Virus record (IMG/VR): IMGVR_UViG_3300023313_000006
Span: 1-64,000 of that record
DNA: 64,000 bases
DNA from: a virus
Strand: one strand, 5' to 3'
Both the position numbers and the translations under genes were made by a program. This document shows, one piece after another, positions 2,688 to 14,645 of the stretch. Numbering within the stretch: position 1 is the first letter of the stretch; each line of letters begins with the position of its first letter. Under the pieces are notes generated by a model. The model saw only the letters and a list, made by a program, of their open reading frames with translations, was not told the DNA's origin and did not search any database.

Positions 2688-3289
2688 ATGTTAATGGCTA
2701 TAATATAAAACCCGGCGCTGATCTTCGCGGTGTCGATCTTCGTTGGGCAGATTTATATGAAGCAAATCTTCGTGGTGCTGTTCTAAACGAATCGAATCTT
2801 CGCGGTGTCGATCTTCGCTGGGCAGATTTGTATGAAGCAAATCTTCCCGATGTAAATCTTCATGGTTCAGATATTCGTTGGGCTGATCTTCGTTTGGCGA
2901 ATCTCCACAAATCGGACTTCACCAAATCAAATCTCACTAGCGCAAATCTATGTGATGCCGATCTTCGTTTGGCGAATCTCCACGGCGCTATTCTTCTTGG
3001 TGTAAACTTTAGCGGCGCGGAACTTTACAAAGCAAATCTTGGCGATGCGGATATTCGATTTGCTATCGGCAATGGCAATGAGATCAAGACGCATCTTTTC
3101 ACGCAGTACCACATAACCTATACCGATGAAATTTTAGCTATTGGCAACTATCAATGCCCCAAGAAAGAATGGCTCAATTTCAGCGACGAAGAAATGGTGA
3201 ACATGGATGATGGAGAACTCGTTGATTGGTGGCGTGAATGGAAACCAAAACTAATAGACTTAGGATTATTTGAAGGAGTTGAACATTGA
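2684..3289 (+). CDS. pentapeptide-repeat protein, paralog 3
   Basis: MNVNGYNIKPGADLR, repeats, same C-terminal domain; ATGA overlap. Confidence 0.9.
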   Translation: MNVNGYNIKPGADLRGVDLRWADLYEANLRGAVLNESNLRGVDLRWADLYEANLPDVNLHGSDIRWADLRLANLHKSDFTKSNLTSANLCDADLRLANLHGAILLGVNFSGAELYKANLGDADIRFAIGNGNEIKTHLFTQYHITYTDEILAIGNYQCPKKEWLNFSDEEMVNMDDGELVDWWREWKPKLIDLGLFEGVEH

Positions 3290-3528
3290 TTAAAAAATAT
3301 CGCAAGAAGCCAGTAGTGATTGATGCTATTCGGTGGACAGGCGACAACGTTCAAGAAATCGACCAATTTGTTAAGCAATACTGGTGGAACGACGGGCAGC
3401 TTGTCCTTCCGACGTTGGAAGGCGAACACGTCGCTACAGTTGGCGACTACATCATTAAAGGCGTAAAGGGTGAATTCTATCCTTGTAAGCCAGATATTTT
3501 TGAAGCGACGTATGAAGAAGTCGAATGA
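3286..3528 (+). CDS. conserved phage protein (KYRKKPVVIxA...TLEG...GDYIIKGVKGEFYPCKPDIF family)
   Basis: Recognisable, widespread phage family of unknown function. Confidence 0.85.
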   Translation: MIKKYRKKPVVIDAIRWTGDNVQEIDQFVKQYWWNDGQLVLPTLEGEHVATVGDYIIKGVKGEFYPCKPDIFEATYEEVE

Positions 3529-11069: not shown

Positions 11070-12824
11070 TTAAAGTGAATTTCTTTTATCTGCGTGAATG
11101 AACGAACCATCATCATTGAATGTTGTGGGCGTGCCGACGATTTGTTCGTTCGTGGTGTGATTGTTGATCATGGTTGGAGCATTGTTGACAGCGATGGTCG
11201 ATGAATTTTTCTTTTCCGCTTTTCTGATTTCGCGGTTTGCTTCTTCAACATAGTTGCTCTTGAATTCCGACATTTCTGAATTGACTTTTTTGGTCGTGAC
11301 ATAGACGTTCTCGGCGCTCAACGTGACGGTCGGTGAATTGGTGTTGTTGTCAACGAACGATGAAACATTGTTGTTTGTTTGTGCTGACAATTCCGAAAAT
11401 TTGTTTGTCACGTTTTCTTTTCTGACTTGAACCGCTTTTGCTGATTGATTGACAGCAACTGCTTTTCGTTTTTCGTCGGCAATTTTTCTTGCTTCTTCAA
11501 TAGCACTTTTGCCACTGATTTGTTGTTCTTTGGTTGGCACGTTGTTATTGTCGTCCGAAGCAAAGGACTTGATCACATCATAGCCGGTTAGCATAGCACC
11601 GCCAATAGCAATAGCACCAGCCAATTCTGGAGCAAGCAGTGTCGCGCCGGCAGCAAGAGCGATTTTTGACAGAATGCTCTTGCTGAACCATGCGCCAACT
11701 CTGGCAGCAGTTTTGCCTTTGAACAAAGAAGATGCTTTTTCTTTGATCGATTTCATCAAACCAACTTTCTTTGATTTCTTCCCCTCGGTTGGTTTTTCTT
11801 GATTCTGAATCGGGACGGTTGTCATTCGTCTCGTTGCTGACGAACCAGCAACGGCACCAGCAGCAGAAGCGATGCCACGTTTCCCGAAAATCTTAATGAA
11901 ATTCCAAAACGATGTCAAGGCTCGCTTCAATCCTTTGAAAATTCCGATTGATGCGACAAGCGAAACACCAAAAGACGTGATCGATCCAATGACAGAAGTG
12001 ATAGCAGATACCAAGCTAGAAAAAACAGCAACCAAAATGCCACCAAGAGCAAGCAACATTCGTCCAAAACCAAAGCGTTTTTGCTTCGTTGTTTTCTTTT
12101 CGATTTTGTTCTGATGTTTCGTTTCGCGGCTTGTTTCAATCGCCAGTTGCTTGTCAATCGACGATTCTTTGTATAGACTGGCGACCGACGTTTGATCTTC
12201 GCCTTTTTTGATCGTGTTAGCAATCAATTTTGCGCGTTCCGCTTTCATTTCTTTGCGCATTTTCATTCGATCGCGAGCCGAATTGTATAGACTGGCGACC
12301 GAATTTTTTGCTACATTGATGATTGCCATTCCTACGGGAGACGTACCAAGCGCACCTGCCATACCAGCAATCAATGAATCTGACATATTGCCGATTTTAT
12401 TTGCTAGACTATCAAGACGATTGTCGGATGAAGCAAAACCGCGCTTCAAGGTCTTGATTTGTTCTTCTAGCAATTCGCGTTCTTCGTCTGAAATGTTTTT
12501 ATCTTTCTCAACGATTCGCGTCAACTCTTTTAGTTGTTCTCTGGCAACTTTGTTTTCTTCCGAATTGCCACGACCTTGTTGTGCTAATTCGTCCAATTTG
12601 GTCACGACGTGTTTGGACAATTCCGATTTTTCCGAAACAGCAGAAAAGGTGCTATCATTGACTGAACGAATGATGTCAAAGATGTGAAAGGCGGCATTTG
12701 CTCTGCCAACCAAACTAACAAGAGCTTTTTCGTTTTGGTCATTTTCCGCTATTGGCGATCGACGAAAATCGCCGCTTGCGTTGCTGGCTTCGACTTTCGC
12801 CTTCACTGCCGACAAATCGTTCAT
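11070..12824 (-). CDS. gp29: tape measure / baseplate hub protein (gp29-like), 584 aa
   Basis: Long helical low-complexity protein with hydrophobic segments; ATG 12824 overlaps the gp51-like stop (ATGA); position after gp26/gp51. Confidence 0.7.
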   Translation of the reverse strand: MNDLSAVKAKVEASNASGDFRRSPIAENDQNEKALVSLVGRANAAFHIFDIIRSVNDSTFSAVSEKSELSKHVVTKLDELAQQGRGNSEENKVAREQLKELTRIVEKDKNISDEERELLEEQIKTLKRGFASSDNRLDSLANKIGNMSDSLIAGMAGALGTSPVGMAIINVAKNSVASLYNSARDRMKMRKEMKAERAKLIANTIKKGEDQTSVASLYKESSIDKQLAIETSRETKHQNKIEKKTTKQKRFGFGRMLLALGGILVAVFSSLVSAITSVIGSITSFGVSLVASIGIFKGLKRALTSFWNFIKIFGKRGIASAAGAVAGSSATRRMTTVPIQNQEKPTEGKKSKKVGLMKSIKEKASSLFKGKTAARVGAWFSKSILSKIALAAGATLLAPELAGAIAIGGAMLTGYDVIKSFASDDNNNVPTKEQQISGKSAIEEARKIADEKRKAVAVNQSAKAVQVRKENVTNKFSELSAQTNNNVSSFVDNNTNSPTVTLSAENVYVTTKKVNSEMSEFKSNYVEEANREIRKAEKKNSSTIAVNNAPTMINNHTTNEQIVGTPTTFNDDGSFIHADKRNSL

Positions 12825-12988
12825 GCTTTCGCTTCCTCTTTCTTTTCGCGCAAACGAGCGAGAATCATATATGTATAGATTTCTCGTTCCCACGGCAACA
12901 TATTTTCCAATTCGGTTAAGCTATAATGAAGTTCGTGAATCAGCTCGAAGTTCAATTTATAGAACGATTGGAGATCATCACTTATCAA
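12821..12988 (-). CDS. gp51: gp51-like baseplate hub assembly protein (55 aa, not in ORF track; possibly made only as a frameshift extension of gp26)
   Basis: Translates to LISDDLQSFYKLNFELIHELHYSLTELENMLPWEREIYTYMILARLREKKEEAKA; YSLTELENMxPWERxIY matches the small gp51 of marine T4-likes. Confidence 0.8.
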   Translation of the reverse strand: MISDDLQSFYKLNFELIHELHYSLTELENMLPWEREIYTYMILARLREKKEEAKA

Positions 12989-12990
12989 GA

Positions 12991-13713
12991 TTAGTCGAAA
13001 AAACTATCGATCCCCGAAATGCGAATTGTGTCTGTTGCACCACATTGAGCGCATCTATATTTAACGTCAAGATATAGTTGTTGGGTCGATGAAATCCAAT
13101 TTTCAATTTCTTTCATTTGATCGTCCGAAAAACTATCGACAAAATCAGCGATTTCATCTTTGGTCAAATCCTTTGTCAACCAGACTTGATCGTTGTCGTA
13201 AATCGATTCGATATGCGCATACAGCACAAGAAAATGCTTCTCGACTTCCGAAAAATCCGAATTTTCAATAGCAGACAACACTTCAACCGACGGCACTGCC
13301 ATCTTGATCCCAACTTCTGGTGTCAATTCTATGACGTTATTTTCGTTTTGTTCGGTGACTTTGACATCGTGCAAATCAACGTCGATGTCATTCACCATTC
13401 CGCATTTTTCGCCATCAACTTCGTTTTCGCAACGGAACGATAGTGTCGTTGTATAGCCTTTGGCTTTGGCTCGAATTTGTAAAATCAACCATTCGAGATC
13501 GGTAGCACACAATTTCTTGGTGTCAACTTTTCCGAACGTACAATTATTGACGATTTGGTGAACAGCAGCAATCATATCTTTTTCTTCGCCAGACGATTCG
13601 GCGATAATCAAAATCTTTTCTTCTTTGACCAAGAATGGTCTATATTCAACTTCTCTGCCAGATACGGGAAGCGTCGTTGTTGAAATTGGTGCGTTTAATA
13701 CGGGTAGTGCCAT
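12991..13713 (-). CDS. gp26: gp26-like baseplate hub subunit/chaperone
   Basis: MALP...LP.SG..V.YRPFLVKEEKILI, LQIRAKAKG, C-terminal CxxC...GIDSFF. Confidence 0.9.
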   Translation of the reverse strand: MALPVLNAPISTTTLPVSGREVEYRPFLVKEEKILIIAESSGEEKDMIAAVHQIVNNCTFGKVDTKKLCATDLEWLILQIRAKAKGYTTTLSFRCENEVDGEKCGMVNDIDVDLHDVKVTEQNENNVIELTPEVGIKMAVPSVEVLSAIENSDFSEVEKHFLVLYAHIESIYDNDQVWLTKDLTKDEIADFVDSFSDDQMKEIENWISSTQQLYLDVKYRCAQCGATDTIRISGIDSFFD

Positions 13714-13724
13714 AAATTAAATCC

Positions 13725-14645
13725 TCAAATTGTTGACCATTGACGATAAGCAAACTGTACTTCGAACGTGGCGATTGTGTCCGTCGTGTCAAAAGACAAT
13801 TCGATCGATGATATATTCGTCGGGAATACATCAACACATCTAATGGTCTTTGACTTGTTTAGATCGTTGGTTAGTTGCGTTACTTCAATGGTTCCGTAGT
13901 ATGATTTGGCGAAGCGGAATTGAGCATTGGCTTCGTCGTATATATAATTATGCCAGTTTTCAAAGAAGGTACGTTCTGAATGATCGTCTGACAAACGGAA
14001 CGTCAAGCGCAACTCATCATAAATGTTGTCATAGGGCAATTTGGTCTGGATTGGACTACCGCGACGAACATCGAATGTGCTGAATGATTTGCCGGGCATC
14101 GAAGCAGACACGCATTGAAAGGTGTGATTTCTCGAATCGCCAATAGCCGTCGGAGCAAAAACACTGACTTCATATTTCGTGGGGCGCGCAAACGTAAATT
14201 TACTGAAAACCGAATTTACGTCTGTTGCTTCTGTTCCGGGTGTTGTTGGTTTGATGAATGAACCTAGTGGTTTGACTGAATAGAAACCAAAGAATTTGCC
14301 AATATCAAAAGTTTTCAAAGCATCCGACAAAACATTGCTGCCGAGAATGTCATTCAAAGCAGCAGCACTCACTCTCGTTGCTGTTGATAAAACTTCATTG
14401 GTGACAGTACCAAGAACAGAGCCGACCAATCCACCACTGTTTAGCGTCACATTCACCCAACTAGGCAAAACTCTACTTTTCGTTAATTGTATTCCCTTCT
14501 CTACCAGAATTGATGGGTTCTGAATATCAGTGACGCCAGCAACATGAATGTTACCAACGCCCAATTCTCCGGTGATACCATTTACCGTTTTTTGGACGTT
14601 GGGCAGGGACTCTAGCGGATTGATTATTGAATCGAGAAACCCCAT
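13725..14645 (-). CDS. gp54: gp54-like baseplate-tail tube junction protein with N-terminal extension
   Basis: C-terminal tube fold: ARPTKYEV...SASMPG...ERTFFENW...FPTNIS...FEVQFAYRQW. Confidence 0.75.
   Translation of the reverse strand: MGFLDSIINPLESLPNVQKTVNGITGELGVGNIHVAGVTDIQNPSILVEKGIQLTKSRVLPSWVNVTLNSGGLVGSVLGTVTNEVLSTATRVSAAALNDILGSNVLSDALKTFDIGKFFGFYSVKPLGSFIKPTTPGTEATDVNSVFSKFTFARPTKYEVSVFAPTAIGDSRNHTFQCVSASMPGKSFSTFDVRRGSPIQTKLPYDNIYDELRLTFRLSDDHSERTFFENWHNYIYDEANAQFRFAKSYYGTIEVTQLTNDLNKSKTIRCVDVFPTNISSIELSFDTTDTIATFEVQFAYRQWSTI

Follow-up and report, generated by a model that had tools for sequence, protein, structure and literature searches.

A conserved -1 frameshift in tail assembly chaperone genes, that of gpG and gpGT in phage lambda, was reportedly described by Levin in 1993 and by Xu, Hendrix and Duda in 2004. 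The lambda G-T frameshift works without a 3' RNA structure. The tail-chaperone frameshift is stated to hold for long-tailed phages "except T4" (PMC5009743). Heptamers of the form H_HH.U_UU.Y are among the most efficient in Escherichia coli, where the tetramer U_UU.C ranks above U_UU.U, and U_UU.U_UU.C is used by insertion sequence (IS) elements (PMC4066793). The locus described here lies in the window, by which is meant the whole stretch analysed, positions 1 to 64,000 (64,000 nucleotides, nt) of the IMG/VR virus record IMGVR_UViG_3300023313_000006. The record is a 75-kb fragment, about 42% complete, and a near-identity DNA search against phage records gave no match. On the minus strand of the window a gp26-like gene is followed by a short gp51-like open reading frame (ORF), and programmed -1 slippage of the ribosome on the heptamer T TTT TTC very probably yields two proteins, of 240 and 297 amino acids (aa). 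Comparison with related loci indicates that most T4-related phages would have a tail-chaperone frameshift, located in the gp26 gene, with T4 as a derived case encoding both forms separately.

The gp26-like gene (12991..13713; all features of the locus are on the minus strand) encodes 240 aa plus TAA and ends AGT TTT TTC GAC TAA. The heptamer (12997..13003) is in the X XXY YYZ phase, its 0-frame codons being TTT for Phe238 (P site) and TTC for Phe239 (A site), and the TAA (12991..12993) follows one codon past it. In the -1 frame a TAG (13004..13006) stands directly 5' of the T-run, leaving 0 open -1 codons 5' of the site. The frame opens exactly at the first T of the run and reads TTT TTT CGA CTA ATC TTG ATA and onwards; its translation begins FFRLILISDDLQSFYKLNFELIHELHYSLTELENMLPWEREIY (FFRLILISDD) and continues for 60 codons, FF and 58 further residues, to a TGA at 12823-12821, so that the whole extension occupies 12821..13003. 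The two frames overlap for four codons only, between the -1 TAG and the 0-frame TAA, and the heptamer fills this overlap. The TA of the gp26 stop belongs to the -1 codon CTA, a conserved hydrophobic position, and the TGA of the extension overlaps the ATG (12824-12822) of the next gene as ATGA. The coordinates in the first-pass annotation, which had been made from the letters of the window and had proposed the frameshift, are correct, as are its -1 reading and its product sizes (239 + 58 aa for the longer one, with the junction SFFRLILISDD); the -1 TAG and the short overlap bounded by it are additions to that annotation.

Long open frames of the window comprise 18,378 codons with six in-phase TTTTTTN, and TTTTTTC in phase is found in them once only, at the gp26 site, one codon before a stop; a chance occurrence is therefore unlikely. 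The other five TTTTTTN (at 12204, 23514, 30540, 36880 and 33813, all on the plus strand) are each more than 140 codons from the stop of their frame, and none looks like a recoding site. The heptamer at 12204 belongs to a shadow frame of the gene downstream of gp26, as may further ones of the five.

According to the proposed mechanism, most ribosomes would read Ser-Phe-Phe-Asp and then stop, giving the 240-aa protein. A minority would slip back by one base with two tRNA-Phe on UUU in the P site and UUC in the A site; these tRNAs would re-pair to UUU UUU, and CGA CUA AUC and the following codons would then be read. A gp51-like helical module of 58 residues would be added in this way, resulting in a gp26-51 protein of 297 aa with residues 1-239 common to both forms. 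By analogy with lambda gpG/gpGT, the shared part may chaperone the next-encoded tape-measure or hub protein. A further tail or hub component would be brought in by the extension, and how often ribosomes slip would determine the proportion of the two forms. The slippage itself, its efficiency and the binding partners are what we infer; the data show the signal in the sequence, its conservation at synonymous sites, a colinearity with T-even gp51 and a resemblance of folds.

Relatives were taken from 80 IMG/VR loci, with a gp26 that is 30-39% identical to that of the window, and from three cyanophage records, together giving 82 usable loci. Codon statistics refer to 77 distinct gp26 genes and junction statistics to 78 distinct junctions. 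The first-pass annotation had proposed an alignment of gp26/gp51 junctions across T4-like genomes, and the outcome is uniform: T TTT TTN is found in the same phase at the gp26 end in 82/82 loci, and the gp51-like frame, 50-71 codons long, is in -1 in all of them. The 0-frame stop is one codon past the heptamer in 61/78 junctions and 0 codons past it in 13/78, the range being 0, 1, 3 or 8 codons. A stop directly past the site may add a pause.

Codon usage at the site is strongly constrained. The codon before Phe-Phe is AGT (33 genes), TCT (18), AAT (13), GAT (8) or GCT (5) and ends in T in 77/77, with an expectation, calculated from the codon usage of these genes, of about 1e-21. The first Phe is encoded by TTT in 77/77, which has an expectation of about 1e-12 when TTT makes up 70% of the Phe codons elsewhere in these genes. 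The second position has TTC in 56, TTT in 20 and TTA in one, the reverse of the local TTT preference. Six T are thus invariant in the 77 distinct relatives and the last base of the heptamer is C, T or A; the preference for C fits the ranking of U_UU.C above U_UU.U in E. coli. One of the IMG/VR loci (L070, about 3202-3208) has the variant T TTT TTA. The invariant motif RPFLVKEEK of the same genes served as a control, and here Phe is TTT in 38 and TTC in 38, Arg uses five codons and Leu six. Synonymous sites are therefore saturated, and the T-run has been held by selection on nucleotides and not by shared ancestry.

The same data bear on the possibility of two ordinary genes, in which the T-run merely encodes Phe-Phe and a 55-aa gp51-like ORF is translated from TTG 12988 by termination-reinitiation. 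This TTG is the sole canonical start codon close to where the small ORF opens. It is 2 nt past the TAA, a geometry compatible with coupling; some ATG, GTG or TTG is present within the first 8 codons in 14/78 relatives, and gp51 has a coding sequence (CDS) of its own in public records. Inspection of the sequence 5' of TTG 12988 found no purine-rich tract or Shine-Dalgarno (SD) sequence, however, and at the position of the TTG most relatives encode the conserved Leu by CTT, CTC or CTG. Despite the varying position of the 0-frame stop, 47 sequences give a gap-free alignment of 110 nt that starts at the slip site, and the -1 peptide is conserved from its start: FF, then R/Y/L and I/L/V, with L10, N12, N17 and F18 near-invariant and residues 5-18 conserved. 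The first in-frame ATG, GTG or TTG comes at residue 9 or later in 64/78 junctions and at residue 20 or later in 43/78, and a conserved SD and ATG start for the gp51-like ORF is absent across the related loci. With start codons located after conserved residues, most of these phages cannot produce the conserved peptide by independent initiation. Selection for Phe-Phe at the protein level cannot explain 77/77 TTT together with 77/77 NNT either, when another invariant Phe is split 38/38. Two separate genes are accordingly judged highly improbable.

The first-pass annotation had held that the small ORF, with a start limited to TTG, no SD and a stop overlapping the ATG of the next gene, is not independently translated, and both the description and the conclusion agree with these results. 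Within the frameshift reading the small 'gp51' ORF would therefore not be an independent gene, because the frameshift would add the gp51-like module to gp26.

A third possibility is that a single 297-aa gene has been split, by a homopolymer assembly indel or by a recent frameshift mutation. Homopolymer runs are error-prone, and the fused architecture exists as one ORF in the T-even phages. This reading is effectively refuted by the comparative data and is given practically no credence. A contig of depth about 50, built separately from the probable source run (a microbial mat metagenome, same sample), is identical to the window over 12800-13200 with the same T6 and no indel, and the split arrangement is found in 82/82 loci and in six cultured phages from different laboratories.

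In these six phages gp51 is in the -1 frame and the slip site takes three forms. The codons are GAT TTT TTC in Aeromonas phage Aeh1, Vibrio phage K575, Stenotrophomonas phage YB07 and Cronobacter phage LPCS28, AAT TTT TTT in Sinorhizobium phage phiM7 and GAT TTT TTG in Rhizobium phage RL38J1 (about 1880-1893), where the 0 frame has Leu for the second Phe. The variants T TTT TTG and T TTT TTA would need near-cognate re-pairing of tRNA-Leu. The T-even-type Escherichia phage Mizar (L084, 3570-3615) differs: its gp26 ends GAA TTC TTT GAG TTA CTA TAA, with Phe-Phe retained and the T-run broken. In Acinetobacter phage Abraxas (L090, 1760-1803) the corresponding end is GAA TTT GTT GAG, encoding Phe-Val, and the run is also broken. 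Genes 26 and 51 are divergently transcribed in both phages, and gene 51 is a separate gene of 250 aa. Both sampled phages in which gp51 is out of reach of a frameshift thus lack the T-run, which makes them a natural control. That Phe-Phe is kept and the run is not in the T-even-type phage also speaks against the two-gene explanation, as does the fused architecture of T-even gp51, which appears to be the functional one. The gene after gp26 in Mizar and Abraxas is gp25, its ATG overlapping the gp26 stop.

A slip of the polymerase rather than of the ribosome would give the same fusion. One U added on T6 would result in the identical 297-aa protein; T7 occurs in 20/77 relatives and T8 in one, and U7 homopolymer runs have been linked to transcriptional slippage (PMC4066793). 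Polymerase slippage would favour longer runs, whereas the run is held at six T and then C in 73% of the genes against the preference for TTT. The X XXY YYZ phase, constant in 82/82 loci, is needed by ribosomal tandem slippage and not by the polymerase. Six T are short for slippage by a bacterial or phage polymerase. An enriched SD-like element upstream would serve the ribosomal mechanism only. Because the T6-C length is held, the phase is constant and SD-like elements are enriched, transcriptional slippage is unlikely.

The enrichment is as follows. An SD-like match of at least 5 nt upstream of the site is found in 40/77 loci, compared with 20.9 +/- 3.8 in synonymous resampling, where 0/1000 resamplings reach 40. 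The Glu codon at this element is GAG in 58%, compared with 8-23% elsewhere and 8-12% at the invariant Glu of RPFLVKEEK. The spacing is about 10 nt in the family and resembles that of dnaX. In the window the tract GGGGA (13011..13015), separated from the heptamer by 7 nt, falls where the enriched GGAGG-like element of the family is located. The first-pass annotation had pointed to this GGGGA; its position was correct and the element has proved to be enriched in the family, but in the window itself it is a weak SD mimic.

Profile searches relate the frameshift product of the window to a gene of the T-even phages. The gp26-like protein matches PF12322 (T4_baseplate) over residues 11-239 with an E-value of 3.1e-51 (174.6 bits, cut-off 24.5) and positions 5-232 of phrog_150 ('baseplate hub') with 3.6e-55, and the 75-kb record has one copy of PF12322. 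The -1 peptide matches phrog_634 ('baseplate hub assembly catalyst') with 2.7e-20, residues 2-59 on positions 56-113 of 121, and also positions 231-276 of phrog_150, right after those matched by gp26. T-even gp51 (250 aa) has a complete PF12322 domain in residues 1-201 (4.6e-59), covers positions 13-281 of phrog_150 and matches phrog_634 with residues 147-248. With hhalign, positions 12-223 of the gp26 family profile align to residues 6-187 of T-even gp51 (5.5e-8) and residues 2-48 of the -1 extension to 200-245 (4.8e-6); BLASTP aligns FRLILISDD... to the T-even FKLLVNPDE... (6e-7). Judged from these colinear matches, T-even gene 51 is the predicted slip product encoded in one frame and gene 26 is the putative short form. 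Two paralogous genes would then give the T-even phages the same outcome, the short form coming from gene 26 and the long one from gene 51.

Hub assembly in T4 depends on gp51, which is not part of the particle, and gp26 and gp51 are listed as hub assembly chaperones (PMC3004832, Leiman et al. 2010). A protein that is required yet absent from the particle shows the behaviour expected of a G/GT-type pair.

An AlphaFold2 model of gp26, built from 44 sequences, has a mean predicted local distance difference test score (pLDDT) of 92.6. The model shows a chaperone-like N-terminal domain (about residues 1-90), a middle alpha/beta domain and two Cys pairs. It was compared with 48,161 representative solved chains by VIA-align; the first-pass annotation had proposed a comparison of predicted structures with tail assembly chaperones. 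The three best-scoring chains, all aligned on residues 1-90, are 3fgx (Z 7.9), 2ob9, which is the HK97 tail assembly chaperone (Z 7.2; root-mean-square deviation 3.5 A over 80 residues), and YqbN, 3klu (Z 6.3), while the fourth-ranked chain has Z 5.3. YqbN of Bacillus subtilis is presumably an XkdN-type prophage tail chaperone. A Foldseek search of the gp26 model against the PDB gave nothing at E <= 0.001, with 2ob9 second at E 0.25, and the gp26 sequence gave nothing below E 0.06 against solved structures. The predicted N-terminal fold is consistent with a tail assembly chaperone, short of proof.

The Cys pairs C95/C104 and C221/C224 are on paired beta-strands and are brought together in the model. 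Matches of this region to the zinc ribbons of ZPR1, ZitP, NrdR and LysW are weak (Z about 3), and the modelled arrangement suggests a zinc-binding knuckle beside the frameshift-encoded C-terminus. The extension (60 residues) is predicted to form three helices with an AlphaFold2 pLDDT of 86; its fold matched only small gp51-like ORFs in BFVD, at E >= 0.1, with no clue to a partner. In BFVD the whole gp26 fold recurs, with E as low as 1e-6, beyond the T4 group in its classical sense, in Ralstonia phage phiRSL1, Pseudomonas phage PaBG, Bacillus phage SP-15, Campylobacter phage CP220, Tenacibaculum phage pT24 and an Ackermannviridae protein, and some of these matches are 300-600 aa long.

The gene order of the locus is tube-like gene, gp26, gp51 and tape-measure-like gene. 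The upstream gene (13725..14645) encodes a tail-tube-fold protein of 306 aa (gp54/gp19-like) that matches phrog_45 ('tail tube') with 6.6e-42 and phrog_3629 with 6.9e-21. The syntenic gene is annotated as tail tube or tube initiator in Aeh1, K575, phiM7 and RL38J1, and the gene stands at the 'V' of a V-G-T-H order. The downstream gene (11070..12824) has its own AAGAGGAAG SD and encodes 584 aa. It is tape-measure-like by position and size, which is the part of the earlier placement 'just before the tape measure' that stands; for an identity beyond these there is a lead only, from a protein-language-model atlas search in which the neighbours include the PF25671 T4_Tape_measure cluster (score 0.91). 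No family match was found for this protein in Pfam, PHROG or NCBIfam. Syntenic downstream genes are 'hypothetical protein' in the cultured relatives, and the label 'lysozyme C' in DSL-LC03 looks doubtful.

Several points weigh against the frameshift and the chaperone role attached to it. The frameshift is a candidate, with no product, junction peptide or ribosome footprint observed. A look-up of sequencing runs containing this DNA listed none of RNA, which counts neither for nor against the frameshift. Compared with shuffles, the 80 nt past the site in the window have z = +0.18 for 3' RNA structure, in line with the first-pass annotation, which had seen no convincing structure there, and RNAalifold on 47 sequences returned 0 conserved pairs; a conserved 3' stimulatory RNA was rejected on these grounds. 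The mean z of the family is -1.05 with 23% of the loci below -2, and a lineage-specific hairpin may exist elsewhere. The SD-like tract of the window is merely CGGGGA and probably contributes little here. Because there is no 3' structure and the tract is weak, slip efficiency may be low, as for lambda G-T. The downstream 584-aa gene is not demonstrably a tape measure, and the chaperone fold match is modest, its Z of 6.3-7.9 being under the caution line of 8 for the tool. The G/GT-like chaperone role, which would follow from synteny, this fold match and T4 genetics, is on balance favoured. The proposal that gp26 and gp26-51 are the G/GT equivalents thus stands as a candidate role for a predicted product, to which the gene order, the T-even fusion and the N-terminal fold lend support.

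No report of a gp26/gp51 frameshift or paralogy was found by full-text searching of the literature, in which most subscription journals are outside the coverage and an earlier report is possible. Among 14 public phage records sampled, 0 had a joined or slippage CDS. The small ORF is unannotated in Aeh1 (L086, 1914-2081), S-WAM1 (L003, 1513-1704), DSL-LC03 (L002, 1513-1682) and LPCS28 (L091, 1926-2090), and in Melnitz (L093, Melnitz-3, 3296-3350) its annotated start is an internal Met, with about 20 residues of the conserved peptide cut off before it. In the Abraxas record gp26 and gp51 alike are called 'tape measure protein assembly chaperone'; the chaperone idea is therefore already in annotation, and the frameshift is not.

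It appears reasonably probable that the T4 superfamily as a whole has its missing tail assembly chaperone pair in gp26/gp51. The U UUU UUC frameshift would be ancestral and kept in the cyanophage-, pelagiphage-, Aeromonas-, Vibrio- and Rhizobium-type relatives, while the T-even and Acinetobacter lineages would have swapped recoding for gene duplication, with the long form fixed as gene 51. If this is true, a protein ratio set by frameshifting has been hard-wired into two genes in a natural experiment, and the group offers a clean system for how gene duplication replaces such stoichiometry. The 'catalytic' gp51 of T4 would have its mechanism explained if it joins the tape measure to the tube or hub as a GT-type adaptor, and the 50-year-old puzzle of why the hub needs a non-structural gp26 and a 'catalytic' gp51 would get a concrete testable role. 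Hundreds of public records would need correction, namely those that lack the small ORF, shorten it to an internal Met or give it as an independent gene. The frameshift is directly testable in cultured carriers such as cyanophages, KVP40-like Vibrio phages and Aeromonas phage Aeh1.

The system would be of a known kind, new in one phage group thought to be without it, and would fill the "except T4" gap. Few recoding events of viruses are as conserved as the tail-chaperone frameshift. Like lambda gpG/gpGT, the predicted pair of the window would share its N-terminus and would need no 3' RNA structure; its heptamer stands shortly before the stop codon of the first ORF, and the second ORF is startless and in -1. 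The flanking genes are one of tube type and a long one that is tape-measure-like by position and size, and the modelled N-terminal domain bears a modest resemblance to a chaperone fold. It differs from the lambda pair in the heptamer, which is G GGA AAG there and U UUU UUC here, in its much larger shared part of 240 aa with PF12322, Cys pairs and an extra domain, in an extension of just 58 aa and in that it is predicted from its genes. The heptamer U_UU.U_UU.C is shared with signals documented in IS elements of the IS3/IS1 families (PMC4066793), and the upstream SD-like stimulator, enriched in this phage family, with dnaX; unlike these, the phage site has no downstream hairpin or pseudoknot, and the SD-like element is present in about half of the family. 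In T4 both gp26 (208 aa) and gp51 (249 aa) carry PF12322, as does gp26 of the window, and T-even gp51 shows homology to the -1 peptide in its C-terminal 50 residues. The sampled T-even-type phages differ in having two separate, divergent genes with the T-run broken and the slip site absent, and in the T4 type the tape measure gp29 is not adjacent and is found three genes downstream of 51.

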